Source: Candidatus Electronema aureum
Lineage (GTDB): Bacteria; Desulfobacterota; Desulfobulbia; Desulfobulbales; Desulfobulbaceae
NCBI GenBank assembly: GCA_004284765.1
Contig: NQJD01000014.1
Coordinates: forward strand, 1 to 32,000
DNA: 32,000 nt
Direction: 5' to 3'
The notes below the pieces were generated by a model. It was not told where the DNA came from, made no database searches, and saw nothing but the letters and a program-made list of their open reading frames with translations. Each line of letters starts with the position of its first letter. The stretch's first letter is position 1. This document shows positions 5,753 through 28,554 of this stretch, piece by piece. The position numbers and the translations under genes are program-made.

Positions 5753-6709
5753 ATGAACCAGAACGATTCTGCCGGACAATCCGGTGGCACAGCTGAGGTA
5801 GAGCTTGCCGATCCTTGGGTTTTGGCCGCCAAAGTCGATGCAGCTGATCTGCACGATCTTTCTTTAGTGCTGAGTGCGGTCGGCATTGATCATCAGCTCG
5901 ACCGTCGCAGCGGGGTCATCACAGTTCGCCGCAGCCGCAGCGAACGAGCTATGTTTGAGCTGCGGACCTTCCGCGAGGAAAACCACAATTGGCCGCCGCC
6001 AGATGTCCTTCCTCCTCCCTTTGTTCGCACCGGTAGCCTGCCCACTCTATTGATGTTCGTCAGCCTGATCTTGTTCCACGCCATCACCGGCTCTTGGCTA
6101 TCTGATAATCCTTGGTTCCAAGCCGGAGCCGTGAGTAGCCAAGCCATTCTGGAGCAGAGCCAGTGGTGGCGGTTGCTCACCGCCCTCACGCTTCATGCTG
6201 ACCAAGGCCATTTAGTCGGCAACTGCGTGATCGGTGGGGTTATGGTGCATCTGCTTTGCAAAACCATCGGCTCAGGCACAGCTTGGTTGGCCATGTTGCT
6301 CTCTGCCTGCCTTGCCAACTACCTTAACATCGCTTTGCGCGTTGATTCTCACTATTCGGTGGGCTTCTCCACGGCTGTTTTCGCGGCCATCGGCATCTTC
6401 TGCGGGCGGCAGCTTCTTGGTGGTTCCTTGATTCGTCAGCTGATTGTACCGATAGGAGCCGGGGTTGGTCTTCTTGCGATGCTCGGCAGTGGCAACGAAG
6501 GCGGGCGAACCGACCTCGGTGCGCATCTTTTTGGGTTGATCTGCGGATTAGCCTGCGGCCTGCTGCTCCAGCGAGCAGGGTTAGATGAGCAAGGCGACCG
6601 CAGCAACCTCCAGAAGACGCTCTTTGCCGCTGCCCTCGTGCTGATTACCGTCTGCTGGCTGCTGGCTATCGGAGCAGCAGGGCCGCAGGAATTCAGAAAA
6701 TACTTGTAA
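5753..6709 (+). CDS. rhomboid family intramembrane serine protease
   Basis: 318 aa. A soluble N-terminal domain is followed by about 6 TM segments. Rhomboid signatures are WRLLTALTLHADQGHLVGN, the catalytic-Ser motif GFSTAVFAAIG and the catalytic-His motif GAHLFGLICG. Confidence 0.8.
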   Translation: MNQNDSAGQSGGTAEVELADPWVLAAKVDAADLHDLSLVLSAVGIDHQLDRRSGVITVRRSRSERAMFELRTFREENHNWPPPDVLPPPFVRTGSLPTLLMFVSLILFHAITGSWLSDNPWFQAGAVSSQAILEQSQWWRLLTALTLHADQGHLVGNCVIGGVMVHLLCKTIGSGTAWLAMLLSACLANYLNIALRVDSHYSVGFSTAVFAAIGIFCGRQLLGGSLIRQLIVPIGAGVGLLAMLGSGNEGGRTDLGAHLFGLICGLACGLLLQRAGLDEQGDRSNLQKTLFAAALVLITVCWLLAIGAAGPQEFRKYL

Positions 6710-6794: not shown

Positions 6795-7916
6795 ATGCCC
6801 ATGAGTGAGAATTCCCCCTGGGGAAAGAAGAAAAAACCGGCATCGCCCGAAGATTTTTTGGCTGATCTCATCCAGAAAATCCGCGATTTCTTCGAGGAGC
6901 AAAGCAAAAAGAAGGCCAAGAAGGAACCTACTCCTGAGGGCGACGGCTTCGACGGGCAGAAATTTCTCGCCGGAGCAGGCAAGATCGGGCTGATCATTGC
7001 CGCGATCGTGCTGCTGCGCGGGGTCTTCGCCTGCTTCTACACCCTCCAGCCCGGCGAGCAGGGCATTGTCCTCCGTTTTGGCAGCTATAATCGCACCGCT
7101 GATTCTGGTCTCAACTTCAAGATTCCCTACATGGAAGAGATGATCCGGGTCGATGTGGAAACCGTGCGCAAAGAGGAATTCGGCGTGCGGAAGACCACAG
7201 GCCATACCACGGACGACAGCGAGTCGCTGATGCTGACCGGCGACAAGAACGTGATTGATGTGGCCTGGATTGTTCAGTACAAGATCAGCGACCCGTTCAA
7301 GTTTGTCTTCAAGGTCAAAAACGTCGAGCAGGCGGTGCGCGACAACTCGGAAACCGTGATCCGGCGCATCGTTGGCAACATGGACTTCGACTACGTGCTG
7401 GGCAACCGCATCATGCTGGCGGACATGGGACGGCAGGAGCTGCAACGCGACCTCAACAAGCTGGAAACCGGCATCGACATTGTCACCTTGCAATTGCTGG
7501 ACATCACCCCGACAGACGAGGTCAAACCAGCCTTTAACGAGGTCAATGAAGCGGATCAGGACATGAAACGCTTGGTCAACGAGGCCGAAGAAACGTATAA
7601 CCGGGTCATTCCCAAGGCGCGCGGCTCGGCCTTGCAGACCATCGAAGAGGCGCGCGGCTATGCGGTACAGCGGGTCAACGATGCTAAAGGCGAGACCACC
7701 CGCTTCAAGGCGATTGCCGCCGAATACGCCAAGGCCAAAGATGTCACCCGGCAGCGCATGTACCTCGAAACCATGCAGAGCATCCTGCCCCAGGTGAAGC
7801 AGGTCTATGTCATGGACAGCAGCCGCCAATCCGTGCTGCCCTATCTCAACCTGAACGAGCCTAGCGCAGGCACTGCATCGCCGCTGCCGCCCGTTGACAA
7901 ACCTTTGAACCAATAA
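6795..7916 (+). CDS. hflK: FtsH protease modulator HflK (SPFH/band-7)
   Basis: 373 aa. The N-terminus NSPWGKKKKP... is followed by a TM segment and an SPFH domain (IVLRFGSYNRTADSGLNFKIPYMEE...). The partner gene hflC follows directly. Confidence 0.9.
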   Translation: MPMSENSPWGKKKKPASPEDFLADLIQKIRDFFEEQSKKKAKKEPTPEGDGFDGQKFLAGAGKIGLIIAAIVLLRGVFACFYTLQPGEQGIVLRFGSYNRTADSGLNFKIPYMEEMIRVDVETVRKEEFGVRKTTGHTTDDSESLMLTGDKNVIDVAWIVQYKISDPFKFVFKVKNVEQAVRDNSETVIRRIVGNMDFDYVLGNRIMLADMGRQELQRDLNKLETGIDIVTLQLLDITPTDEVKPAFNEVNEADQDMKRLVNEAEETYNRVIPKARGSALQTIEEARGYAVQRVNDAKGETTRFKAIAAEYAKAKDVTRQRMYLETMQSILPQVKQVYVMDSSRQSVLPYLNLNEPSAGTASPLPPVDKPLNQ

Positions 7917-7925
7917 CAGACCAGC

Positions 7926-8897
7926 ATGAACCAGCAGATTATGGAGTATCTCAAAAAGCCGCAGTTCCTGAATGGCCTCTACCTTCTGTTTGCCGCAGTC
8001 GCCGTGCTCATGATGCTCGACGGCTTTTATATTTTGCCTGAAAACAAGCAGGCGGTCATCACCCAGTTTGGTGCGCCGGTCGGTGAGCCGGTGATCAAGG
8101 CCGGGCTGAAGCTGAAAACGCCCTTCTTGCAGCGGGTGAGGCTCTTTGAGAAGCGGATTCTCATCTGGGACGGCGAGCCGAACCAAATCCCGACGAACGA
8201 CAAGACCTTCATTTACATGGACAACACCGCCCGCTGGCGGATCAAGGACGCGCTCCGTTTCCTCCAGGCAGCAGGCAGCGAGGAACGCGCCCAGACCCTG
8301 CTGAATGACATCATCAACGGTGCGGTGCGCGACATGGTCAATCAGAATGACCTCATCGAGATTATCCGTTCCTCAGACTGGAATCCGCAGTACGTTGTCG
8401 AGACTTCCTCGGCCAGCGACATGACAAAGAAACCCAAAATCGGTCGGGATAAAATCAGCAGGCTGGTTTTGCAGCAGGCATCCAAGGACGCGCTCAAATA
8501 CGGCATTGAGCTGATCGACGTGATGTTCAAGCGGGTGAATTATATCGACTCGGTGCGGGTAAAAGTATATACTCGGATGATCTCAGAGCGGAAGCGGATT
8601 GCCGCAGAGAAACGCTCAACCGGTGAAGGCCGCAAAGCGGAAATTCTCGGCAAGGTGGAGCGCGAGCTGAAGGAGATCACCTCGGAAGCCAAGCGGCAGG
8701 CCACGGAAATCCGGGGCAAGGCCGATGCAGAGGCATCGCGGCTGTACGGAGAGACCTACAGCAGCGATGCGGAGTTCTATTTCTTCCAGAAAAGCCTGGA
8801 AAGCTACCAGAGCATCATCGGCAGTAACACCTCGCTGGTGCTGTCACCCAAAGCAGACCTGTTCCGCTATTTAGAATCGCCTGCGGTGCGGCAATAA
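7926..8897 (+). CDS. hflC: FtsH protease modulator HflC (SPFH/band-7)
   Basis: 323 aa. It has an N-terminal TM segment, an SPFH domain and a coiled-coil region (RKRIAAEKRSTGEGRKAEILGKVERELKE). It starts 9 nt after hflK. Confidence 0.9.
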   Translation: MNQQIMEYLKKPQFLNGLYLLFAAVAVLMMLDGFYILPENKQAVITQFGAPVGEPVIKAGLKLKTPFLQRVRLFEKRILIWDGEPNQIPTNDKTFIYMDNTARWRIKDALRFLQAAGSEERAQTLLNDIINGAVRDMVNQNDLIEIIRSSDWNPQYVVETSSASDMTKKPKIGRDKISRLVLQQASKDALKYGIELIDVMFKRVNYIDSVRVKVYTRMISERKRIAAEKRSTGEGRKAEILGKVERELKEITSEAKRQATEIRGKADAEASRLYGETYSSDAEFYFFQKSLESYQSIIGSNTSLVLSPKADLFRYLESPAVRQ

Positions 8898-13555: not shown

Positions 13556-14857
13556 ATGAATTTCTCTGTGCTACATCTCTTTGCTGGCCTCTTTCTTCTT
13601 GTCGTCATCTTTTTTTCGGCAAAACGATCAGCATTTTGCATTCTCCGCAAGAAAGAAATCCAGCCTGATGTCGCCAAAGATGTAATGAAGATCCTTTCTG
13701 TCGCATTCTTTGTTGTTTATTTGTTTACCGCGTTGCTTTCATATCTGCTTCTTACTCCGCAGGTCGCAGAACCTTTCCGCACGATGCTATCTCCACCGGC
13801 AAATATCGCTCCTGCCGTGCCGATTGTTGCAATACCGCACGGGAAAATGGCAGCAGAGCAAGGCCGCGATGAACGGCAGCGGCTGCTTGCAGAAGAAACA
13901 GAGCTATTGATCAGAGCTGCGGAGGAACGCCATCAGCTTTTCAGTCAGAAAAGTCCCTACGTTGTTCCTGAAGGCATATCCGGGACTGAGGATAAATATA
14001 TCGTTCCACATGTTGAACAGCTTGCACCACCTGCTGCGCCCAATGAAAATGCACTTGCTGAGAACAAGATATCTGTCCAAGAATTGGTGGCATCCGCAGA
14101 AGGCATATCATCAATCTTGCCTGAGCAGCATCAGCACCCTTTACAGATTCCGGTGCAGTCTTCCGCAGAGCAAATTATTCCTCTACAAGAGCCTCCCTCT
14201 GCACCTGCTGCCAGCGAAATGAATTCACCTGCTCAGGTGGTTACTCCACAGCAGCAAGCGTTGCCTGAGATACTACAGCCTACTGCCACGTCAGCAGCAA
14301 TCCCCAAGGGAATAGATCAGCAGATTGCAATGACCCAACAGCAACCCGTTCAATCGCTGCCAGCAATACAAAAAGTGTCCTGCGAAGAGATAAAAGGATA
14401 CATGGACGATACTGATTATCAGGTGCTTCGTTCTGCCATAGCAAAACCGGCAGGTGTCGTTACACCTTGGAAAGGGCCAAATGGGGCATATCATGTCACC
14501 GCAGGAGCAATCAAAGGCAGTTGCAGAGAGTACAGCATTCAGGCAAACCTGTCGGAAAAATCCTTGCAGTGCCATGTCTCATGCGTCAGCAGTACCAGCA
14601 TTGCCGCACCAGCAAACAGCAGAATGATTCCTCAGCAAAGAAGTGATCAAGAAGTGATCCGCGATTCGATGAATAGCAGCGACCAAGATGCCTTTATTAA
14701 GGCTCTGACCTATCACGGCCCTGTTTCGTGGCGTAGCTTGAACGGCGTTTTCTATACAGTTGCTCCTGTCCGCCTTAATGGCCCTTGCAAGGTCTATCAT
14801 GTGCAGGCCAATATTCAAGGAAGAGTCTTTCAATACAATGAATCAAACTGCCAATAG
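13556..14857 (+). CDS. hypothetical membrane-anchored protein with a Q/P-rich linker and two copies of a Cys-containing ~65-aa domain
   Basis: 433 aa. There are two hydrophobic segments near the N-terminus. The two repeats are ...VVTPWKGPNGAYHVTAGAIKGSCREYSIQANL... and ...PVSWRSLNGVFYTVAPVRLNGPCKVYHVQANI... These loosely resemble the 'surface antigen' (W..p.tG..G.v.p...g..CReY) domain as I remember it. No convincing SD precedes the start, so the start is uncertain. The gene is lower in GC by eye. Confidence 0.5.
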   Translation: MNFSVLHLFAGLFLLVVIFFSAKRSAFCILRKKEIQPDVAKDVMKILSVAFFVVYLFTALLSYLLLTPQVAEPFRTMLSPPANIAPAVPIVAIPHGKMAAEQGRDERQRLLAEETELLIRAAEERHQLFSQKSPYVVPEGISGTEDKYIVPHVEQLAPPAAPNENALAENKISVQELVASAEGISSILPEQHQHPLQIPVQSSAEQIIPLQEPPSAPAASEMNSPAQVVTPQQQALPEILQPTATSAAIPKGIDQQIAMTQQQPVQSLPAIQKVSCEEIKGYMDDTDYQVLRSAIAKPAGVVTPWKGPNGAYHVTAGAIKGSCREYSIQANLSEKSLQCHVSCVSSTSIAAPANSRMIPQQRSDQEVIRDSMNSSDQDAFIKALTYHGPVSWRSLNGVFYTVAPVRLNGPCKVYHVQANIQGRVFQYNESNCQ

Positions 14858-14958: not shown

Positions 14959-15981
14959 TCAGTTTAATTCAAAGCGCACTGGTACCTTGACCCACATTTC
15001 TTTTCTCTTGCCACCAACAATGCCTGGGGTAAACCGCCAGCTGCGTACAGCATTGAGGGCAGCCTTGTCCAAAATGCCGTGACCGCTACTGGAAAAGGGG
15101 CGGAGATCAGCCACACGACCGCTGACATCAATCAGAGCTTCAATGGTGACCACGCCTTGCAGGCCGCGTCGCCGCGCTTGCGGCGGGTACTCTGGCGGTG
15201 GATTGCTGGCGTAGAGCGGCGCAGCCTCCTGATCGCCTGAACCAGCACCTGTGCCGGATAAACCGCCGGTGCGATTACGCTGTCCCACCTCGCTGCCTAA
15301 GCCACTGTCTGCATCACCAATGCCTGTTTTGGCCCCAGTCACGACTGAATGGCTTGCCCCCTTTCTCGAAGGAAAATCTCTACGTTGTACATCGTTACCT
15401 TGTGGAGAAGCAGGATGCGCAGCGTCCGAACCAGCCGCATTTCCTTTTTCCAAACCTACTTCTTTCAGAGAATTTACTTGAGGTTCAGGCGGCAGAGTCG
15501 CCAATGGCTTGAGAGAAGCCGAAGCAATTTTGGGTGGAGGAGACAGTCGCCGGATGATTTTTCCTTGCGCAGGCGGCAGAATCGCCAATGGTTTGGGAAC
15601 AGTCGAAGCAATTTTGGGCGGACGAGGCCGTTGCCGGGTAATTTTTCCTTCAGCGGGCGCGGGCGGCTGCATATCCAATGAATTGACCACACTCTTTACT
15701 TCAACTTGCTTCTTCTGAGCCGCCGGTTCGGCTGTTTTGACAGCATTACCGCTACCATTTTTCTGTTTTCCAGGGAGACGTACAGGCATGTTGATCAAAT
15801 TCATCATGACAACATTGTTCAACTTGGGTCTGCTGTTCGCCATATTTTGAAGAGCAATTGCTCCACCAAAAACAGCGAGATGCAAAATGACGGCTATGTT
15901 CAGAGGCCATTGCCATCTCAGGCGACCGTTTTCGCGTTGCTCCAGAAATGCCTGCCACTCGTCGTAATCTGTCCCGTTCAT
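14959..15981 (-). CDS. TonB family energy transducer
   Basis: The C-terminal domain PPPEYPPQARRRGLQGVVTIEALIDVSGRVADLRPFSSSGHGILDKAALNAVRSWRFTPG is present, with a Pro/Lys-rich spacer and an N-terminal TM segment. The start is taken at the ATG at 15981 (GAGGAG 7 nt upstream). The track start at 16053 is a GTG. Confidence 0.8.
   Translation of the reverse strand: MNGTDYDEWQAFLEQRENGRLRWQWPLNIAVILHLAVFGGAIALQNMANSRPKLNNVVMMNLINMPVRLPGKQKNGSGNAVKTAEPAAQKKQVEVKSVVNSLDMQPPAPAEGKITRQRPRPPKIASTVPKPLAILPPAQGKIIRRLSPPPKIASASLKPLATLPPEPQVNSLKEVGLEKGNAAGSDAAHPASPQGNDVQRRDFPSRKGASHSVVTGAKTGIGDADSGLGSEVGQRNRTGGLSGTGAGSGDQEAAPLYASNPPPEYPPQARRRGLQGVVTIEALIDVSGRVADLRPFSSSGHGILDKAALNAVRSWRFTPGIVGGKRKEMWVKVPVRFELN
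15486..15653 (-). repeat. 2 x 84-bp tandem repeat inside the TonB Pro-rich spacer
   Basis: CAGGCGGCAGA(G/A)TCGCCAATGG(C/T)TTG... recurs at 15486 and 15570. It encodes PPAxGKIxRxxxxPPKIASxxxKPLAxL twice. Confidence 0.8.
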
Positions 15982-16212
15982 TTTTCGCTCCTCTAAAAAC
16001 GGATTTACGGCAGCAAAAACTGGAGATTGCAAAAAGAACGGAATATCTGTCACGGACGGCTTCGGCTTGGCCTCTTATGGGAAAGCATTTCCGGCGGAAA
16101 GACACAGAGTATCAGTGTTGGTCAGGAAGACATTGCCGTTTTCGAGAAGCATAGAAAATTTAACCGCATCCATCTGTTTGGAGATTTATATTAACCACTA
16201 CAACAATTGCAT

Positions 16213-16349: not shown

Positions 16350-16387
16350 CAAAACAAAAGCCTCCCAGAGGTACTGAGAGGCTTTTT
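16350..16387 (-). terminator. Intrinsic terminator of the mglB-mglA-acidic protein operon
   Basis: Minus-strand reading: GCCTCTCAG-TACCT-CTGGGAGGC (16382->16360), a 9-bp stem including one G-U pair, followed by TTTTGTTTTG. It starts about 10 nt after the stop codon. Confidence 0.75.
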
Positions 16388-16391
16388 ACTC

Positions 16392-19300
16392 TTAGTTTCT
16401 TCCTTCCATTATCTCTTGTCTCAGCCGATCAAATTCTTCCATCATCTCTAGCTTAAGCTGAGAAAATTTTTCCTGAATCAAACGCAGGCCGACATCCTCA
16501 GGACTGCTTTCTTTCGGCAGAGCTACTTTCTGTTGTTCTTTACTGAGAAGTATTTGCTCAAAGAAATCTCGCTGCCAAGCTGTATAACGGCTGATCATGT
16601 CGGCAAGCACAGCTGGTGTTTCCGCCTTGTTGAGTGCCGCAGCCAGCTCTTTGACAATTGCACTGCTGACCACCGTTCCCTGCGGGGTTTTAGCAAGCAT
16701 AACTACTGAGGAATCTATCAGATTAAGCACAATGGACTGGTGCGGCGGCAGAGAGTTTTCTTTTTGAGCCGCAACGGCCAGTTCAGATATTTGCCGCAAA
16801 TGATGCGCTGAAGGCACAGCCGTAAGGGCTACAGCAACAGCAGTGAGAGATGAAATTACCTCAGCTGCGCTTTCACTGCTGTTTTCAGCCGTGATTAGCT
16901 CTTCTTCATCAACATCATCAGGCTCAATTTCCTTTGTCGTCGATTCATCAGCATTGAATCTAAAAGGATCCTGCATCTCATCTTGACCGAACAAAGCCGC
17001 TGGTTCGCTCTCTGTTTCATATTCCTCACCAAGAAGGAGATCATCAGAATCCTCACCCGGTAGTATGGCAGAAACATCGACCTCCTTCCAAGTATCTTTC
17101 TCTACGTTGCTGTCAGCTTCAAAGGTAAAGAAAGCGTCGTCCTCAGTCTCATTCTCAGCGAGAATAGAGTTTTCTCCTACTGCCTCATCCAAACCAAACA
17201 ACCCGTCATCGTCAGTAGTAGATGTGGCTTCTTCATCAGGTGCAGTCTCATCACCCTCAGCAGCGAAGCGGAAGAAATCCTGATCGTCGTCGCTTTCCTC
17301 ATCATCAGGGGGTAAGGTGACAGGCTCCTCATCTTCAGAAAACTCTTCCTCTTCTTTAGAAGTCTCGCCTTTCATGTCAAAGGCAAAGAACGCATCGTCA
17401 TCCTCTTGGGCCGCATCCGTATCCTGACTATCAGCAGTAAGGGAATTTTCGTCCTGAGCTAAACCAAACAGCGCGTCATCATCGGTATTAGCTGAATTTT
17501 CTTCCGTAGATGCAGTTTCTTTACCCTCAGCAGCTAAACGGAAAAAATCCTGATCGTCGCTTTCCTCATCATCAAAGGACAAGGTTGCAGGCTCTTCATC
17601 TTTGGAAAGCTCCGCTCCTTCTTCTTTATCAGGCCCGCTGCTGCTGTCAAAGGCAAAGAACGCATCGTCATCGTCGGTATCAGCTACAGCCTCTTCTTCG
17701 ATGACTGCAAATTCGGAGGTGGAAAACATTTCCTCCTCTTTCTGCGCAGGTTCTTCGTCCAAGGCAGTTATGAATTCATCATCCAGCTCTGGCGTATCTG
17801 TATCTTCATCTGCTTGACGAACCTCTACTGCCGTTTCTTTTACCGCTGGTTCATCATCAAATTTGAAAAGAGAATCAAGTTTGTTCTTAATTTCAGCTGC
17901 TCGTTCTACATCAATGCCTGCTGCTGATGCAAACCCTTTGTCATCATCGTCATTGAGGTCAGAAACGGCAGCTATAGTCGCAGACTCAGTTTTTAGACCT
18001 TCTTTGACTTCATCGTCAAAGCTGTTGAAAAAAGAATCTAATCCGTCATCGCCCGGCGCATCTCTATCCGTTGACAAGGAAACTTCTTCCTCATCAGCAA
18101 AGGCTGCCTCAACTGATGACTCTTCATCAGCTATCTCATCCTGCTCGCCGAATATGTCATTATCAAATCTCAGCTCGGCAACATCATCCTCTTCATTTAC
18201 CGATGAAGCACTTTCCTCGTTTTCATCAACAAGTGCAGGCGCAATGAGAGTATCTTTTTCGTCCTGCAAGCCAAACATATTGTCGTCAAAACTTAGACTA
18301 TCCTCATTTTCTTCAACCGCTACTGCTGCTGTCTTCGGAGCATCCCCATCATCAAAGCTGAAGAAGGAGTCAAACCCGGAACCGAGTCCGTGTTCTTCCA
18401 CTTCATCTACCGCAAAATTCGTAGCTGAAGCATCTTTCGCTTCATCTTCTTCAGTCAAAGCAGCAGTCACAAGCGGCCTATCTGTTTCTTCCTTCTGCTC
18501 GTTGAACATATCATCGTCAACATTCAGTGTGTCGCCATGTTGTTCTTTAACTGCTATTGATGATATTGCTTTCTTGGGAGTATCAGTACGTTCTATTTCG
18601 TCGTCAAAATTAAAAAATGAATCTAACTCGTCATCCGCTTCATCCTCATCATCAAGACTATCCCCAACTGTTGAAAGGCGTTGCTCTTCATCAGAATCAG
18701 TCAAGATCGCAGTAACCAAAGTCTTGGCCGAGGGTTTTGCCGCTTTGCTGTCAAAATCGCCGCCTAGCTCATCGTCAAAGCTCAGAGTGTCGTCATCATC
18801 TCCGGTTGACAGCTTGGTCGAAGCAACACCTTCCAGTTCGTCATCAAAATTGAAAAACGAGGAATCAAGCGTATCATCCTCATCGTCATCATCAGGTATC
18901 TCGTCTAAAATTTTCGCCAAAGACTGTTTTTGTGGCTTTTGTGGTTCAGTAGGCGAGACACTGGCAGTGACTTTTGGCTTCGGTGCTTCTGCCTTCGGCT
19001 TTTCTTCTTCGTTGTCGCCAAAATTAAAGAATGAATCTAACTTTTCATCAAGTTCAGCAGCCCGTTCTCCGCCAAGACCTGTAGAAGCAAAGCTGTCGCT
19101 GAAACCGCCTTCCTCATCTTCATCGGCAAGCGCGGGCGTAACACCACCGCTGTCCGAGAACAGATCGTCGTCAAATTCGTCCTCATCATCCGCAGCGATC
19201 GTTGCTGGTTTGGCAGTTACAACAGTCGCTACTTTTGACGGAACTGGTTTTTCAGGCAGAACAGCGGCAGGTGGCGCATTGCTCTTCTGCGGTTTTGTCT

Positions 19301-20423
19301 CAGCTTCATCGTCATCAAAGGCGAAATCAAAATCCATTCCGTCATCATCGGCAAGAGCAGGTGAACCACCGAACTCTTCATCAGGCGCACCAAAATCATC
19401 TGCCAGCACATCTTCTTTCTCATCAGCAGCGGTATCCGGCTCCTCTTCAAGCTGCTCAGGAATATCCTCTTCTGCTTCTTCAGCAGTTTTGCTGGCCCCT
19501 GAACGAGCGATAACCTCTTTCAAAGAGTTCAGACTGCTGATTTGCTCCACCAGTATCTGCCGCCGTTGCTCTGCGCCCAGCTCTGGGCTTTCCAAGAGCA
19601 TTTTCAGGGCATCATAAAAAGAGTGGAGAATGGTGAAAGAATCAGGATGAGCGTTGGTCTTCTGTTCCCGAATGTAGGCACCGAGAGCCTGTAGCCCTTG
19701 AATCAGTACCTGCCCCTCAGTGTTGCCGCTCAGGTGGCTGCGTAGCTGCGTAGCTTCGGTGTTAAATTTTTCTAACCCCTCATCGGTAACTTCCCATTCC
19801 AGCCCTAAAATGGTGGCTTCCATGCTGCGTAACGGCGGCGGCATAGCAACTGCGGCCTCCTTCTGTTTTTGCAGGGCGGCTGGAGTAGTGGCAGTACCTT
19901 CTTCAATCTCTTCTGGCGCAGCTTCAGCAGTATCGTGGCTGCCTTGCGTCTTCTTCAGGGTGCTGATTTGAAACTGTAATACCTTGAACTTACGGATGTC
20001 CGCCTTGAGCATGGCGGTAATGCTGTCGCCGCTGATGTTGGGCGAGGAGATTATTTTTTCATAGTTGTGATAAAGAGTGAGGAGCAGCTTGATGGCGTTG
20101 GGATGCGCATAAGCACCTTCAGCCTGCATATATCTCCCCACATTTTCCATGCCTTGAAGATATATCTGCGCCACTTTGTCGTCCTTCCACATCGAACGCA
20201 GATTGGCCAACTCATCATTCAGCTCAGTCAGAATTTCTTCGGTAATGTCCCAGTCCAAAGAAAGAACGATCGATTTGAGACGAAGCAAGGGAGAATCCTC
20301 ATCATCCGTGAATTCAAATAGATCTACTTCTTCGGTGTCGAAGGATTCGTCCGCAAACTGAGTGAGGTCTTCAAATTCGTCGATTGAGGGGGCCATAATC
20401 TTGTTTGGACTTATCAGAGGCAC
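16392..20423 (-). CDS. 1343-aa hyper-acidic protein: duplicated N-terminal ~110-aa domain, ~875-aa D/E-rich disordered region with repeated FF-type motifs, helical C-terminal domain
   Basis: This is one uninterrupted ORF with a GTG start at 20423 and an alternative ATG at 20396. It lies 26 nt downstream of mglA on the same strand. No signal peptide is evident, and I recognise no family. Confidence 0.75.
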   Translation of the reverse strand: MPLISPNKIMAPSIDEFEDLTQFADESFDTEEVDLFEFTDDEDSPLLRLKSIVLSLDWDITEEILTELNDELANLRSMWKDDKVAQIYLQGMENVGRYMQAEGAYAHPNAIKLLLTLYHNYEKIISSPNISGDSITAMLKADIRKFKVLQFQISTLKKTQGSHDTAEAAPEEIEEGTATTPAALQKQKEAAVAMPPPLRSMEATILGLEWEVTDEGLEKFNTEATQLRSHLSGNTEGQVLIQGLQALGAYIREQKTNAHPDSFTILHSFYDALKMLLESPELGAEQRRQILVEQISSLNSLKEVIARSGASKTAEEAEEDIPEQLEEEPDTAADEKEDVLADDFGAPDEEFGGSPALADDDGMDFDFAFDDDEAETKPQKSNAPPAAVLPEKPVPSKVATVVTAKPATIAADDEDEFDDDLFSDSGGVTPALADEDEEGGFSDSFASTGLGGERAAELDEKLDSFFNFGDNEEEKPKAEAPKPKVTASVSPTEPQKPQKQSLAKILDEIPDDDDEDDTLDSSFFNFDDELEGVASTKLSTGDDDDTLSFDDELGGDFDSKAAKPSAKTLVTAILTDSDEEQRLSTVGDSLDDEDEADDELDSFFNFDDEIERTDTPKKAISSIAVKEQHGDTLNVDDDMFNEQKEETDRPLVTAALTEEDEAKDASATNFAVDEVEEHGLGSGFDSFFSFDDGDAPKTAAVAVEENEDSLSFDDNMFGLQDEKDTLIAPALVDENEESASSVNEEDDVAELRFDNDIFGEQDEIADEESSVEAAFADEEEVSLSTDRDAPGDDGLDSFFNSFDDEVKEGLKTESATIAAVSDLNDDDDKGFASAAGIDVERAAEIKNKLDSLFKFDDEPAVKETAVEVRQADEDTDTPELDDEFITALDEEPAQKEEEMFSTSEFAVIEEEAVADTDDDDAFFAFDSSSGPDKEEGAELSKDEEPATLSFDDEESDDQDFFRLAAEGKETASTEENSANTDDDALFGLAQDENSLTADSQDTDAAQEDDDAFFAFDMKGETSKEEEEFSEDEEPVTLPPDDEESDDDQDFFRFAAEGDETAPDEEATSTTDDDGLFGLDEAVGENSILAENETEDDAFFTFEADSNVEKDTWKEVDVSAILPGEDSDDLLLGEEYETESEPAALFGQDEMQDPFRFNADESTTKEIEPDDVDEEELITAENSSESAAEVISSLTAVAVALTAVPSAHHLRQISELAVAAQKENSLPPHQSIVLNLIDSSVVMLAKTPQGTVVSSAIVKELAAALNKAETPAVLADMISRYTAWQRDFFEQILLSKEQQKVALPKESSPEDVGLRLIQEKFSQLKLEMMEEFDRLRQEIMEGRN
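17154..17693 (-). repeat. 2 x 270-bp in-frame tandem duplication within the acidic ORF (residues 911-1000 / 1001-1090)
   Basis: The 25-mer gtcaaaggcaaagaacgcatcgtca occurs at 17376 and 17646. The protein segments ...DDDAFFAFD...EEP.TL..DDEESDD(D)QDFFR.AAEG.ET...DDD.LFGL... align along their whole length. Confidence 0.85.
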
Positions 20424-20449
20424 TGCATCAGCTGTCCATGCCGTTCCGT

Positions 20450-21055
20450 TTACAGAAGTTTTTTCTGCACCGATACTACGGTAAGAGAGATGATTTTTTT
20501 GAGAGTTTCCGGCACATTGTATCCAGTGAGCGCACTGGCCTCAAAATACGGTACTTTCAATTTGCTGTTCAGGTCTTGCTCCAGTACCGAAGTAGGCAGG
20601 ATAGGAATACCTTGATCGCGCAGATCGACCTTGTTGTATTGCATGACCAAAGGAATTTTGAAAATCGATTCCTTGTATTCTTTCAGGTTCTCGTGCAGCT
20701 GATTGAGCGAGCGGATATTTTTTTCTCGCATCGCCTCTTGGGCATCAGCAACAAAAACAAGACCGTCCACACCTTTTAGTACCAACTTACGAGTGGCGTT
20801 GTACTTAACTTGACCAGGTACAGTATACAGCTGGATTTTCAGCTCATAGCCTTTTATTTTGCCCATATCAAAAGGCAAAAAGTCAAAAAACAATGTCCGA
20901 TCGCCGTGGGTCTTCAGGCTGACCATCTCCGACTGAATCTGCTTGCTGAATTTCCGGTTGATGTATTCCAGATTGGAAGTTTTTCCTCCTCTTCCCGGCC
21001 CATAATAGACAACTTTTACTTGGACAATCTTTTCACGTAGATTTATGAAGCTCAA
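20450..21055 (-). CDS. mglA: Ras-like small GTPase MglA
   Basis: 201 aa, with a TTG start preceded by GGGAGA. The sequence is collinear with Myxococcus MglA as I remember it: MSFIN..REI..KIVYYGPG..GKT.NL.YI...; DRTLFFDFLP; LYTVPGQV.Y.A.RKL.LKGVDG.VFVAD.Q; IP.V.QYNK.DL. Confidence 0.9.
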   Translation of the reverse strand: MSFINLREKIVQVKVVYYGPGRGGKTSNLEYINRKFSKQIQSEMVSLKTHGDRTLFFDFLPFDMGKIKGYELKIQLYTVPGQVKYNATRKLVLKGVDGLVFVADAQEAMREKNIRSLNQLHENLKEYKESIFKIPLVMQYNKVDLRDQGIPILPTSVLEQDLNSKLKVPYFEASALTGYNVPETLKKIISLTVVSVQKKLL

Positions 21056-21110
21056 GGCAGTCTCCCGCTGGATGAATTAATGCTGTTGGTGAAGGTGTGA
21101 GAAAAAATCT

Positions 21111-21509
21111 CTATTTGCCCGCCCAGAGTCTCCGTATTTGCTCCAGGGCCTTCACAACGTTCAGCCTGAGAAAACCTAAGGAAATATGCTTTCCGAACAT
21201 AGTGATCAGAAGCAACTCGTCGTCAATTTTGGAGAAATGGATATTGCAGTCCGTGCCTTTGTGAAAAAGTAGGGAAAATTCCTGTTCACCTACTAATTTG
21301 GCCATTGCATCAACCGTGGCAAAGTTACCGGCTGCCAGAGCGGCAAAGGAATAGACATCGTACTTAGACGTGCCGTTGTCCTTTGCCGTGATGATGTTTC
21401 CTGCCATATCAATGATGATGACACAGTCCACACCGATTTTGATGAGCTGTTCAGACAGTATTTCATCAATTTTTTCAAGCTGTTCTTGGCTGACTACACC
21501 GTAGTTCAT
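21111..21509 (-). CDS. mglB: Roadblock/LC7 domain protein MglB (MglA GAP)
   Basis: 132 aa, with GAGGG 7 nt upstream. It resembles Myxococcus MglB: ...IIDMAGNIITA..., FAALAAGNFATVDAMAKLVGEQEF...FHKG, LGFLRLNVVKA. It lies immediately upstream of mglA, as in the classical mglBA operon. Confidence 0.85.
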   Translation of the reverse strand: MNYGVVSQEQLEKIDEILSEQLIKIGVDCVIIIDMAGNIITAKDNGTSKYDVYSFAALAAGNFATVDAMAKLVGEQEFSLLFHKGTDCNIHFSKIDDELLLITMFGKHISLGFLRLNVVKALEQIRRLWAGK

Positions 21510-21690: not shown

Positions 21691-21719
21691 ATTGTCAACT
21701 CTACCTGTTATTTTGTCAA
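21691..21719 (-). promoter_or_regulatory. Candidate sigma70-type promoter for the mglB operon (TTGACA-17-GACAAT)
   Basis: Read on the minus strand: -35 TTGACA (21719-21714), a 17-nt spacer, -10 GACAAT (21696-21691). It would give a leader of about 180 nt. This is a pattern match only. Confidence 0.25.
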
Positions 21720-24999: not shown

Positions 25000-25881
25000 T
25001 TAGATGCCTATCGGCGGCTCTAAATTAGAGTAGTTCTCAAAACTGGTGTATTCGCCGACAAAAGTCAGCTTCACCGTCCCTGTCGGGCCGTTGCGCTGCT
25101 TGGCGACAATCACCTCAGCAATCCCCCTGTTCGGGTTCTCCGGCGACTTGTTATAGACCTCGTCTCTGTAAATAAATAGAACTACATCAGCAGTCTCCTC
25201 AATTTCACCGCTTTCCCGCAGATCCAACATCGTGGGCCGCTTGTCGGTGCGGCTTTCCAAGCTGCGGTTGAGCTGCGACAGGGCCAGCACCGGCACATTC
25301 AGTGCTTTGGCCATCGCCTTGAGCGAGCGCGAGATTTCGCTGATCTCCTGATTGCGGTTTTCACAGCCGGAGGAACGGCTCTGCATGAGCTGAAGATAAT
25401 CAACCACCAGCAAGCCCAGATCGTGCTCCTCTTTCAACATTCTGGCCTTAGCTTGCATTTCCAGTACGCTGATGCTTGCTGTGTCATCAATAAAAAGCGG
25501 TGATTCAGTGAGCATCCCGGTGGCTCTGGTCAGCTTGGGCCAGTCCGATTCCATAAGATGGCCTGTGCAGATGCGATGAGAATCCACCTTGCCAATAGCG
25601 CAGATCATACGCAAGGCAAGCTGCTCTGCCGACATCCCTAGACTGAACACGGCGGTAGGCACTTTGCCGTCCACAGTGGCGTGCTGGACGATGTTCATTG
25701 CCAAGGCGGTCTTTCCTAAGCCCGGCCTTGCTGCGATAATGATCAGATTGGAAGATTGCAGCCCGGCAGTCATCCGGTCCAATTCATGATAACCAGTGGC
25801 CACGCCAGTGCGGTCAAAGGCTCTGAGCAGGATATTGGCCATCGGCTCAAAGCCCTGCTTATTGGTCTGTTCTTTTTTCAT
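25000..25881 (-). CDS. DnaB-like protein consisting only of the C-terminal RecA-type ATPase domain (intein-free paralogue of the adjacent dnaB)
   Basis: 293 aa, starting 6 nt after the dnaB stop. It aligns with dnaB residues ~173-397 plus 816-888 (roughly three quarters identical by eye). Walker A (ARPGLGKTA), Walker B (VVDYLQLM) and SQLNRSLESR are kept, but SLEMS has become SLGMS and SGAIEQDADV has become SGEIEETADV. The N-terminal domain is absent. Confidence 0.8.
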   Translation of the reverse strand: MKKEQTNKQGFEPMANILLRAFDRTGVATGYHELDRMTAGLQSSNLIIIAARPGLGKTALAMNIVQHATVDGKVPTAVFSLGMSAEQLALRMICAIGKVDSHRICTGHLMESDWPKLTRATGMLTESPLFIDDTASISVLEMQAKARMLKEEHDLGLLVVDYLQLMQSRSSGCENRNQEISEISRSLKAMAKALNVPVLALSQLNRSLESRTDKRPTMLDLRESGEIEETADVVLFIYRDEVYNKSPENPNRGIAEVIVAKQRNGPTGTVKLTFVGEYTSFENYSNLEPPIGI

Positions 25882-25887
25882 GATGCT

Positions 25888-28554
25888 TCAGCCGAATGAA
25901 TCCCCGTGCGGCGGCTCCCGGTCAGTGTAGTTCTCGAATGAGGTGTATTCGCCGACAAAAGTCAGCTTCACCGTTCCTGTCGGGCCGTTGCGCTGCTTAC
26001 CAACAATCACCTCGGCTATACCACGATTGGGGTTTTCTGGTGCTTTGTTATAAACCTCATCCCTGTAAATAAACATAATAACATCAGCATCTTGCTCTAT
26101 TGCGCCCGAATTATGACTGACAATACCGTCCGCTAACCAGCAAGCATTACCCGGTACGGTCAGATCAAAAACCTCTTCTTCGCCCGCAGGTTCAATCGCA
26201 ACGATCTTGTCCCAAAACAGATCATCTTGCGTCAGACTGAACAGCCATTCGTCATCCAAGTGTTTAGCATAACTCAAGACGCTTTCCCGCGATGGAGCAA
26301 ATTTGAAACTTGCTGTCCCGTTGTACGATCTGCCTCGCAATTCCGCCATCTGACGGGATGTTATGCCCTTCAAGCGCATCTGCTCACGAATATAGACAAA
26401 AATTTCCTCCGGCAGCGTATCAACGTTGGTATTGCTGACCGTGTGTTCAATCATGGCCGCAGCCTGTTCAGCAGGCTCTTTGCGCGGCCCGAATGCGCCG
26501 ATCTCCCGAAGGAAAATACGCTGCTGTTCCGCCCCAGAAACATCAGCAGTGAACCAACCTTGCGGACTTTCAGTCGTGGTGACATGCTTGATGCGTGCGA
26601 CAATGCCGAAACGCAGAAGCAGGGCGGCAACATCGCGGATCAGCAGTTCACTGGCAGTGCAGAAGTAGATGCGTGGCTTGTCCTTGCCAGCATGAATGCT
26701 GCCATCCGTCGCCCAGAGATGGCGAAGAAACAAGGTCAATTGTTTCTTAGGCAGCCGGAACACGCCCACAGGCAAATATTTCTCATGCGAACGCTGGCCG
26801 AAGATACCCAAATCCTTGAGCCATTTACCGACCCCCGCCGGATGCCAGCGGTTGCCGTTGCCGCTGATAACCAACTGATGCCAGTTTCCTCGTCCGGGCT
26901 GACGATTGACAGTGGAGCCGAACGCTTGTGCTGCTTCCGTGACCGCTTGGCTGTTCTCCTCGCTGGCTGTGGTATAGCGCAGCGGTTGTTTTGTAACATA
27001 GCTGCCATCACCAACCAAATGCGCCAGCAGGATAATTTCATGTTCAGGCCATGCAACCGTCTGCGGTGGTTCTGGTAGGTGGCGGGCAAGAGCGATGCGG
27101 TCGCCAATCTGAAGATCACAGGCATGTTTCCAGTCTGTCAATGAACGTAAGCGATGCTCTTTGGAACAACACAGGGTGCGTCCGCTGGCCAGCTGAATCC
27201 GCAAAATTTCCTTTTGACCGACAGACCAGACTAATTCAGCAGCGGCGCATTCTATCCTTCCGTCCTCCGTCATTGAAACGACAGAGGGTCTTTGCCCGAC
27301 CAAATCGCGAACAGGAATCCGACTGCCGTCGGCCAGCATGACCAAGGTGTCGCCGGTCACGCATTCACGCAAATCCGACATCATGGGTCGCTTGTCGGTG
27401 CGGCTCTCTAAGCTGCGGTTGAGCTGAGACAAAGCCACTACCGGCACGTCTAACTCTTTCGCCATTGCCTTAAGCGAGCGAGATATCTCACTGATTTCCT
27501 GATTCCGATTCTCAGAGCCGGAACGCCCCTGCATCAGCTGAAGATAATCCACCACTACCAACCCTAAATCATGCTCTGATTTCAGCCGCCGAGCTTTGGC
27601 CCGCATCTCCAAAACAGTCAAACCAGCAGTATCATCAATGTAGATCGGCGCGTCTGTAAGCATCCCCGTGGCCCTGATGAGCTTAGGCCAATCCGACTCT
27701 ATCAAGCGGCCTGTGCGAACGCGTTGCGCATCCACCTTACCTACAGCGCAGAGCATTCTCAGAGTCAGTTGTTCGGAGGACATTTCCAAGCTGAACACGG
27801 CGGACGGTATCTTATTGATTACCGAGGCTGTCTGCACAATGTTCATGGCCATCGCGGTCTTACCCATCGACGGTCGTGCCGCGAGAATGACCAAATCTGA
27901 AGGCTGTAGCCCAGCGGTCATCCGATCTAATTCCTCGTAACCAGTGGCCACGCCGGTAATATGCTCTTTGCGCTGAGAAAGGCGCGTCACCCGATCAAAA
28001 GCCTTAGGAACGATTCGAGCCATCGACTCGAACCCCTGCTTCTTACGGGCTTGAGCAATTTCAAAAATCGACTGCTCGGCTTTGTCAACCAGTGCGTCAA
28101 TGTTATCTTGGGCATCGTAGCAACGGGCTGCTACTTCAACGCTGGTTTGAATCAGTTTGCGCAGAACAGATTTTTGCCGGATGATATGGGCATGATGAAC
28201 CAGCGTTCCAACAAAGGGAATTACTTCGGTAAGCTGGGAGATGTAGGCATATCCTCCTGCCTTCTCTAACCGATTCTGATCACGGAGCAGATTGGAGACG
28301 GTAATCAGGTCGTGAGGCTGTCCTTTTTCAAACAGGGAAAGCATAGCCCCAAAAACGATCCGATGACCTTCTCGGTAGAAATCATCAGGCGCAAGCAGCT
28401 CAACAACTTTGAGCAGAGCTTGTTCCTGAATCATAATGGTACCGAGCAAAGCCTGCTCGGCTTCCACGTTCTGAGGCGGCAGACGGCCTGCTGCCGACTG
28501 TTCATGCCCGCTGCGGACGAAGGGAACGGAATAGTCAGACAACTGAGACATCAC
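25888..28554 (-). CDS. dnaB: replicative DNA helicase DnaB, interrupted by a 418-aa intein
   Basis: 888 aa in total. After removing the intein the extein is 470 aa. It contains ...PPQNVEAEQALLG..., ARPSMGKTA, SLEMS, VVDYLQLM, SQLNRSLESRTDKRPMMSDLRE|...|SGAIEQDADVIMFIYRDEVY. Confidence 0.95.
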   Translation of the reverse strand: MMSQLSDYSVPFVRSGHEQSAAGRLPPQNVEAEQALLGTIMIQEQALLKVVELLAPDDFYREGHRIVFGAMLSLFEKGQPHDLITVSNLLRDQNRLEKAGGYAYISQLTEVIPFVGTLVHHAHIIRQKSVLRKLIQTSVEVAARCYDAQDNIDALVDKAEQSIFEIAQARKKQGFESMARIVPKAFDRVTRLSQRKEHITGVATGYEELDRMTAGLQPSDLVILAARPSMGKTAMAMNIVQTASVINKIPSAVFSLEMSSEQLTLRMLCAVGKVDAQRVRTGRLIESDWPKLIRATGMLTDAPIYIDDTAGLTVLEMRAKARRLKSEHDLGLVVVDYLQLMQGRSGSENRNQEISEISRSLKAMAKELDVPVVALSQLNRSLESRTDKRPMMSDLRECVTGDTLVMLADGSRIPVRDLVGQRPSVVSMTEDGRIECAAAELVWSVGQKEILRIQLASGRTLCCSKEHRLRSLTDWKHACDLQIGDRIALARHLPEPPQTVAWPEHEIILLAHLVGDGSYVTKQPLRYTTASEENSQAVTEAAQAFGSTVNRQPGRGNWHQLVISGNGNRWHPAGVGKWLKDLGIFGQRSHEKYLPVGVFRLPKKQLTLFLRHLWATDGSIHAGKDKPRIYFCTASELLIRDVAALLLRFGIVARIKHVTTTESPQGWFTADVSGAEQQRIFLREIGAFGPRKEPAEQAAAMIEHTVSNTNVDTLPEEIFVYIREQMRLKGITSRQMAELRGRSYNGTASFKFAPSRESVLSYAKHLDDEWLFSLTQDDLFWDKIVAIEPAGEEEVFDLTVPGNACWLADGIVSHNSGAIEQDADVIMFIYRDEVYNKAPENPNRGIAEVIVGKQRNGPTGTVKLTFVGEYTSFENYTDREPPHGDSFG
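26110..27363 (-). mobile_element. DnaB intein with LAGLIDADG homing-endonuclease domain
   Basis: It starts with CVTGDTLV directly after ...SDLRE (Cys codon at 27363-27361). It ends with ...FDLTVPGNACWLADGIVSHN, followed by the +1 Ser (Asn codon at 26112-26110). The two LAGLIDADG blocks are LLAHLVGDGSY and FLRHLWATDGSI. The sequence resembles the Rhodothermus/Synechocystis DnaB inteins as I remember them. Confidence 0.9.

Follow-up and report, generated by a model that had tools for sequence, protein, structure and literature searches.

A large acidic protein family encoded directly after mglB–mglA in cable bacteria and their relatives: a candidate scaffold of the MglA/MglB polarity switch

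Results

An mglB–mglA–X gene triplet in Candidatus Electronema

The sequence studied here is a 32-kb stretch of DNA (hereafter the window) from Candidatus Electronema, a freshwater cable bacterium. On its minus strand, mglB (21509–21111), mglA (21055–20450) and an open reading frame (ORF) of 1343 codons (20423–16392), here called gene X, follow one another in this order. Of the bacterial models of switchable front–rear polarity, MglA/MglB is understood best, and what is known of its landmarks and partners comes almost entirely from Myxococcus. The three ORFs had been pointed out in an earlier, sequence-only reading of the window, and all of them are present where that reading had located them. 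The features of the locus are as follows.

16356..16386, minus strand: intrinsic terminator (13-bp stem, 5-nt loop, T-run), 5 nt after the X stop codon
16392..20423, minus strand: gene X; longest ORF 1343 amino acids (aa) from GTG 20423, probable start ATG 20396 (1334 aa, 146 kDa, pI 4.05)
20450..21055, minus strand: mglA, 201-aa Ras-like GTPase; TTG start 6 nt after GGGAGA
21111..21509, minus strand: mglB, 132-aa roadblock/LC7 protein, directly upstream of mglA
21691..21719, minus strand: promoter-like site TTGACA-17-GACAAT in the 283-nt lptE–mglB spacer (consensus scan, 10 of 12 matches; pattern match only)

The 55-nt gap between mglB and mglA and the TTG start of mglA behind GGGAGA are both seen in the sequence, as the sequence-only reading had described them. 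The 26-nt gap that it gave between mglA and X applies if X starts at GTG 20423. However, ATG 20396 is likely the true start, because MAPSIDEF is where the orthologues begin, as does P0024, a public gene call of 1334 aa, and the gap is then 53 nt. The terminator announced after X is there, but with a stem of 13 bp instead of 9 bp, and 5 nt instead of about 10 nt from the stop codon. No terminator-like site was found in either of the two intergenic gaps, as had been noted. The layout is operon-like, and the gene order suggests that the three genes are co-transcribed. Rfam and tRNA scans gave no match in or near the operon. A plus-strand ORF of 584 aa (17863–19617) was rejected as a gene: it lies antisense to the acidic region of X, and its Ser-rich translation only mirrors the GAx/GAA codon bias there. 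The neighbouring genes in the window are of the housekeeping type: pheS, infC, thrS, a rhomboid gene, two SPFH genes, a Mrp-type ATPase gene, lptE, leuS and an intein-bearing dnaB.

MglA and MglB

The product of mglA matches the Pfam Ras family (E 3e-11) and aligns end to end (residues 1–198) with MglA of M. xanthus (PDB 6hjh, E 8e-51). It contains the P-loop GPGRGGKT, the motif DRTLFFDF with the intrinsic Arg finger (R53), and YTVPGQ with T78 and the catalytic Q82. These residues, which the sequence-only reading had singled out as diagnostic, are not only present in the window but belong to motifs that are invariant across 87 related loci. In MglA, Thr78 stands in place of the Ras Asp, and group 1 Ras-like polarity GTPases are some 195–200 aa long. 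Judged by these sequence features, the window gene is a true orthologue of MglA and belongs to group 1.

The 132-aa product of mglB matches the Pfam roadblock family (Robl_LC7, PF03259; E 1e-6, 28.6 bits, above the cutoff of 23) and MglB of M. xanthus (PDB 6h5b_B, E 3e-16), the latter alignment stopping at about residue 130 of the 159 M. xanthus residues. Its match to the NCBIfam MglB equivalog (E 4e-15, 56 bits) lies below the curated cutoff of 200. On the strength of the predicted fold and of the adjacency to mglA, the protein is identified as the roadblock/LC7 GTPase-activating protein (GAP) MglB. It ends about 2 residues past the last roadblock helix (132 versus 159 aa), without the acidic C-terminal extension of about 27 residues; a Myxococcus-type MglB is defined by a helical extension at this end that is rich in D/E and longer than 15 residues, and such an extension is thus absent. 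The same was seen in all seven loci inspected (the window, L004, L005, L090, L091, L093 and L094), where MglB is 130–138 aa long and lacks the acidic C-terminal helix. An anticorrelation between the length of MglB and the acidic array of X was considered and rejected: the 161-aa MglB called at L005 is an N-terminal overcall, and its C-terminus is short too.

Gene X never leaves mglBA

In an exhaustive profile search (50%-identity clusters), the X domain described below was found in 1004 cluster representatives at E ≤ 1e-3, 823 of them at E ≤ 1e-10. The best 150 relatives range from 257 to 1401 aa and contain 15–36% Asp+Glu, with at least 19% in members of at least 550 aa. The closest genome match of the domain (99%) is in Candidatus Electronema nielsenii. 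Cluster look-ups of the relatives returned only the name 'hypothetical protein', and a further word-based search with the domain profile added 3 new fragments, with no informative names and no fused domains.

Genome loci found through the X domain span Electronema, Electrothrix, Desulfobulbus, Desulfogranum and related metagenome-assembled genomes (MAGs). Wherever upstream sequence exists, mglB–mglA lies directly upstream of X (80 of 80 loci), with MglA 82–99% identical. Conversely, among metagenome loci found through MglA, mglB was upstream in 80 of 80, and the X domain was present in all 78 that have at least 250 nt downstream. The linkage between X and mglBA is therefore obligate in both directions and essentially absolute. 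The sequence-only reading had named, as a result that would speak against its proposal, homologues that were common but never linked to mglBA; they turn out to be common and always linked. Divergent members of the family (P0022, P0106, P0164, P0078 and P0171) also lie directly after mglB–mglA. Those looked at singly, namely a one-domain form of 246 aa, two three-domain forms (580 and 1243 aa), a member of 561 aa and a fragmented copy, share this position, and divergent members occur in at least five different outer neighbourhoods. Across the loci only the three-gene core is conserved, the leuS–lptE flank being restricted to the cable-bacterium clade. Since orthologues with conserved ends are present at more than 150 loci, X is, on comparative grounds, a real gene and not a chance ORF.

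By sequence, X defines an undescribed protein family with three characters: at least one five-helix domain of about 110 aa of the type 'LSLDWEI...AHP', a C-terminal amphipathic helix, and a gene placed directly after mglB–mglA. The window X shows all three. The minimal relative of 246 aa has a motif-like N-terminal peptide, one bundle and the C-terminal helix; these elements therefore appear to be the core of the family, and the acidic array an expansion. According to a 2014 survey of Ras-like GTPases in prokaryotes, MglA of groups 1, 4 and 5 has no conserved neighbour (PMC4316618). In the searchable literature, no paper pairing MglA with cable bacteria or Electrothrix was found.

The length of X varies strongly among lineages. 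The values below refer to complete orthologues only.

833–980 aa: D. rhabdoformis, D. alkaliphilus, Desulfogranum japonicum, D. marinum and D. mediterraneum (cultured, unicellular)
670–1106 aa: related Desulfobulbaceae MAGs
1275–1472 aa: Electronema (seven complete loci including one MAG; window 1334–1343 aa)
1421, 2081 and 2268 aa: Electrothrix
2784 aa, with 34% Asp+Glu: Candidatus Electronema halotolerans

X is thus 1.3–3.3 times longer in the filamentous gliders than in their unicellular relatives, and the gain lies between domains D2 and D3, i.e. in the acidic array. The orthologues of 2081–2784 aa, with 34–35% Asp+Glu, are those of Ca. Electronema halotolerans (L015, 9863–18250) and of two Electrothrix loci (L024 and L061). 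It should be noted that most public copies of X carry the annotation 'partial'; it appears that short-read assemblies break up within the acidic array.

Architecture of X

The 1343-aa translation contains 13.8% Glu and 13.4% Asp (27% Asp+Glu), has a net charge of –270 and lacks Cys. Its order of parts is N-terminal peptide, D1, D2, acidic array, D3 and terminal helix. The coordinates are given below, with the predicted local distance difference test score (pLDDT) of the AlphaFold2 models and the E-value against the family hidden Markov model (HMM).

20304..20384, minus strand: N-terminal acidic/aromatic peptide IDEFEDLTQFADESFDTEEVDLFEFTD, X residues 14–40 (alignment A1, most columns at least 70%; pLDDT about 70)
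19962..20294, minus strand: D1, five-helix bundle, X residues 44–154 (family HMM E 7e-48; pLDDT about 90)
19506..19835, minus strand: D2, second copy of the bundle, X residues 197–306 (family HMM E 1e-45; pLDDT about 90)
16869..19505, minus strand: acidic disordered region, X residues 307–1185, with about 14 aromatic clusters, 5 motif-A sites and 3 motif-B sites
17183..17675, minus strand: tandem duplication of about 270 nt (90 aa) in the disordered region; AFFAFD...FFRxAAEG...LFGL unit, twice
16521..16868, minus strand: D3, five-helix bundle, X residues 1186–1301 (pLDDT > 90; five-helix pattern like that of D1 and D2)
16398..16499, minus strand: C-terminal amphipathic helix of 34 residues, X residues 1309–1342 (pLDDT 81–92; 3–4 hydrophobic spacing, i.e. 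a heptad pattern)

The peptide ahead of D1, IDEFEDLTQFADESFDTEEVDLFEFT, is well conserved among close relatives, and a regular expression for it matched 125 of 203 long family members. D1 and D2 were modelled together (X residues 1–320, 23 homologues) and are separated by a disordered linker. The N-terminal duplication proposed in the sequence-only reading is real, the two copies being 26% identical (BLASTP E 5e-19).

The C-terminal part, which that reading had described as a helical domain, is indeed helical and confidently folded (model of residues 1159–1343, pLDDT 85). It is better described, however, as two elements: a bundle that is probably a third version of the N-terminal domain and, after it, a terminal helix that stands apart. 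At exactly the position of D3, many relatives carry a third D1/D2-type copy that can be recognised as such, and a profile of the window-type C-terminal domain aligned with these C-terminal third copies of three-domain relatives (hhalign probability 82%, E 1e-5). Sequence profiles and models alike suggest that D1/D2 probably have in D3 a third, divergent copy. When the C-terminal 175 aa were used in a word-based search, no homologue was returned; only profile–profile comparison brought out the kinship of D3. The terminal helix keeps the pattern ..F..L+....EF..L+.E. in both the two-domain and the three-domain classes and, as modelled, is a candidate coiled-coil or oligomerisation helix. A 33-nt unit is repeated 2.2 times at 16403–16473, giving an 11-residue duplication within this helix (EKFSQLKLEMM / EEFDRLRQEIM).

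Database searches left X without a family. The full protein had no match in Pfam or NCBIfam at E ≤ 0.1, and each domain copy searched alone against Pfam at E ≤ 10 gave no consistent weak family. A profile search of the domain against PDB sequences returned chance-level matches only (e.g. apolipoprotein, E ≥ 0.46), and neither of the two models matched a PDB structure in Foldseek at E ≤ 0.001. Single X domains superpose loosely on CheA P1 (template modelling score 0.61–0.64, target-normalised; Foldseek E 0.4–2.8, not significant). The FAT/GIT1 bundles, which bind acidic amphipathic LD motifs, were likewise among the non-significant matches. The Foldseek E-values for the X domains were all at least 0.04, and above 0.1 for every bundle of the CheA-P1 or FAT type. 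Nor do the X domains qualify as histidine phosphotransfer (HPt) domains: there is no Hpt match in Pfam even at E ≤ 10, and the invariant His of the X domain is found in the AHP motif just before or at the start of helix 4, not in the middle of helix 2 as in HPt. We regard the resemblance to CheA P1 and FAT as generic bundle likeness only. On this point, too, the sequence-only reading stands, in that profile and fold searches assigned the folded domains to no characterised family.

Neither a signal peptide, nor a LysM domain, nor a convincing transmembrane segment was detected in X. Its sole hydrophobic window (Kyte–Doolittle 1.71, residues 1185–1203) is modelled as helix 1 of D3 with pLDDT > 90, and the N-terminus is acidic. 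From its sequence, X looks cytoplasmic.

The acidic array and its motifs

The disordered region spans about 880 residues (307–1185), close to the figure of about 875 given in the sequence-only reading, which had noted aromatic short motifs in it; 14 or so aromatic clusters were found. Its Asp+Glu content is 22–48% per 50-residue block, the block 1151–1200 overlapping the start of D3. Two motifs recur family-wide, including in distant three-domain members. Motif A (ELDxKLDSFFxFDD, roughly E-x-(K/R)-L-D-S-F-F-x-F-D-D) is of the LDSFFNFDD type in the window. Motif B (TPALADEDEEGGF, roughly T-P-A-L-A-D-E-D-E-E-G-G-F) is of the PALADEDEE type. A sixth match of motif A in X lies within the N-terminal peptide (VDLFEF). 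Over 198 family proteins, motif A was counted 535 times where composition-preserving shuffles predict 85 (6-fold; 176 of 198 proteins), and motif B 489 times where they predict 23 (21-fold; 186 of 198 proteins). Among the complete orthologues compared, the exact variant SFFxF of motif A is confined to the cable-bacterium clade. The direct repeats D3, D6 and D7 of the tandem duplication (repeat labels, distinct from the bundles) are 75–80% identical and spaced 267–270 nt apart. At the sequence level, this duplication seems to show the manner in which the array grows.

Discussion

The MglA/MglB polarity module is a system of a familiar kind; the locus shows it in what is apparently an undescribed three-component variant. 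We propose, with about an even chance of being right, that mglB, mglA and X form a conserved three-gene polarity module in which X serves the MglA/MglB switch as an acidic, multivalent scaffold in the cytoplasm. The three bundles and the coiled-coil-like terminal helix would offer folded surfaces for binding and self-association. The disordered spacer would present arrays of the two short motifs, to which the N-terminal peptide, of like flavour, would add. These motifs might recruit MglA, MglB or effectors, or else dock onto the bundles of neighbouring X molecules, and would so build up a concentrated platform, polar or subcellular. The landmark or adaptor role that RomR–RomX has in Myxococcus, or PopZ, HubP or FimV elsewhere, would fall to X in this lineage. 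We infer the physical interaction, the localisation and the motility effect of X from gene order and from the anatomy of the protein.

Several points weigh against a scaffold. Linkage shows functional coupling, not which role X has in it. The bundles match no known interaction domain, and the 32-kb window cannot tell whether the genome also encodes RomR/RomX. The extreme acidity could serve otherwise, for example in the binding of cations or polyamines. Finally, the regular expressions for the motifs were written after examples had been seen, the enrichment being measured on about 200 proteins, most of which were not used in deriving them.

Among the known partners of MglA, RomR is similar to X in outline. 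The disordered linker of RomR varies between lineages, its Glu-rich C-terminal helix is conserved, and each of the two targets the pole; RomR was found in only 26 of 60 MglA/MglB genomes (PMC3441718); the RomR–RomX complex binds MglA-GTP like an effector (PMC13408092). X resembles RomR in being tied to MglA/MglB and in having a variable disordered region and a conserved Glu-rich C-terminal helix, the two helices being likened by description. On the other hand, X has no receiver domain (no Response_reg match in Pfam or NCBIfam) and has three bundles of no recognised family; it is 3–7 times larger and far more acidic, and it lies in the mglBA operon, whereas romR does not. The sequence-only reading had considered the third gene to be unlike the known partners of MglA. 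This proved correct, as Pfam and NCBIfam revealed no REC, TPR or PilZ domain in X, and a roadblock domain in MglB only; a protein of the SgmX, AglZ, FrzS or PlpA type can be ruled out for the same absence of TPR, REC and PilZ domains.

PopZ of Caulobacter (about 180 aa) consists of a short, conserved N-terminal interaction peptide, an acidic disordered spacer and a C-terminal helical oligomerisation region. The layout of X is similar, but PopZ has neither helical-bundle repeats nor a link to MglA, and X has no Pfam match. FimV, HubP and TspA are large, acidic, repeat-bearing polar hubs that organise pilus, flagellar or chemotaxis machinery; they possess a periplasmic LysM domain, a transmembrane segment and the FimV C-terminal motif. 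X shares their size and acidity but looks cytoplasmic and has neither LysM nor a match to the FimV motif models. The likeness to HubP and FimV drawn in the sequence-only reading therefore holds as an analogy between large acidic proteins and fails as membership of the FimV family.

A scaffold is not the only role that the data would allow. X might instead regulate the nucleotide cycle of MglA, its acidic–aromatic motifs occupying the allosteric pocket of MglA in trans and tuning nucleotide exchange, GAP action or the retention of MglA. In M. xanthus, the C-terminal helix of MglB binds this pocket, to which alpha5 contributes K181 and K185 and the beta2–beta3 loop L64 and I67, and controls exchange and polarity; basic alpha5 residues go with MglBs that bear an acidic C-terminal helix (Baranwal 2019; PMC6785124). 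The M. xanthus helix sequence was confirmed from the PDB chains (SDDDIDNLFS, residues 147–157; ...SDDDIDNLFSE). Every MglB of the family that we inspected lacks this extension, and X carries about 14 motifs that resemble it, such as DDDALFGL, DDNMFGLQDE, LDSFFNFDD and VDLFEFTDDE. In both cases an acidic run is followed by a hydrophobic LF, the motifs being many in X and the Myxococcus helix a single copy at the end of MglB. Moreover, in all 87 MglAs, K181 and I67 are invariant, position 182 is always K or R, and position 64 is M or L. However, of the two lysines whose importance was demonstrated in M. xanthus, K185 is replaced by Ser in these MglAs, and many MglBs without the C-terminal helix have no known substitute for it (PMC6785124). 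We consider this role rather unlikely because the likeness of the motifs to the helix is short and of low complexity (an acidic run plus LF) and could be due to chance.

A similarly doubtful alternative sees X not as a landmark of the switch but downstream of it, as an effector or adaptor linking MglA-GTP to a motility machine, be it type IV pili or a gliding apparatus, in the manner of SgmX or AglZ. The obligate linkage of X with mglA is compatible with this, and so is the fact that cable bacteria glide (PMC12163305) and have a longer X than their unicellular relatives. In distant relatives (L005 8763–9803; L093 7754–9638; L094 11834–12553; L091 1–218), the surroundings of the triplet hold TPR, Zn-ribbon, weakly roadblock-like, MshEN-domain and PatA_N (PATAN) proteins, and a PilC-type T2SSF gene, which hints at a pilus or polarity context. 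In the window, in contrast, no pilus or gliding genes adjoin the module, whose neighbours are housekeeping genes, and the architecture of X includes neither TPR nor PilZ nor a long coiled coil. Known MglA effectors are usually unlinked to mglBA, which X is not.

An extended version of these ideas seems quite improbable to us. In it, X would stand for a new class of GTPase-coupled polarity hub, a self-associating, possibly condensate-forming acidic scaffold whose motif arrays bind the allosteric pocket of MglA in trans, replacing both the C-terminal helix of MglB and RomR/RomX. The array would have been lengthened 2–3-fold in cable bacteria to organise or synchronise the polarity and the gliding reversals of cells joined end to end.

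It is very unlikely that X is a passenger that merely shares the mglBA transcript and has an unrelated job, such as buffering cations or polyamines, mimicking nucleic acid or serving as structural filler. Its extreme net charge and pI would suit such a job, and its disordered region evolves rapidly in length, with duplications at the DNA level. A passenger, however, would not be expected to stay with mglBA at more than 150 loci while all the outer neighbours change, nor would one expect its two termini to be conserved together with three folded domains and two specific motifs. Least credible of all is a pilus-assembly hub of the FimV/HubP type: JGI and NCBI do label some partial homologues of X 'pilus assembly protein FimV', and X is as large and acidic as such a hub, but the absence of LysM, of the FimV core and C-terminal models (TIGR03504/TIGR03505 type), of any Pfam or NCBIfam family at E ≤ 0.1 and of a signal peptide, with D3 helix 1 as the only hydrophobic stretch, indicates that the label most likely reflects compositional matching.

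Whichever role applies, X never separates from mglBA in one large lineage, the Desulfobulbaceae and their relatives, with about 1000 sequence clusters. This makes X a strong candidate for a missing scaffold or partner of MglA/MglB, and offers a testable route to how bacteria other than myxobacteria anchor or tune the switch. As the array is about 2–3-fold longer in cable bacteria, X could also provide a handle on the control of motility in these filamentous gliders. Both the two motifs and the three bundles are of a size that suits direct binding experiments and structure prediction.

Other genes in the window

Just downstream of X lies a gene for a TonB_C protein of 364 aa (14959–16053, minus strand), with the Pro-rich repeat PPPKIAS..KPLA.LPP present twice and a weak AgmX/PglI match in its tail. 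In spite of this match, it was rejected as a conserved partner of the module, being absent at every other locus. A 433-aa ORF (13556–14857, plus strand) encodes an N-terminal hydrophobic segment followed by a long Pro/Gln/Ala-rich region; it belongs to no Pfam family and has a chance-level match to the NCBIfam model of SpmX (E 0.035). Two adjacent SPFH/Band-7 genes, forming a HflK/HflC-like pair (6795–8897, plus strand), come after the rhomboid protease gene (5753–6709). The dnaB ORF (25888–28554, minus strand, 888 aa) contains an intein with a LAGLIDADG homing-endonuclease domain at about residues 406–815. Directly downstream of it, with an overlap of 8 nt, a 293-aa ORF (25000–25881, minus strand) encodes a second complete DnaB_C domain.

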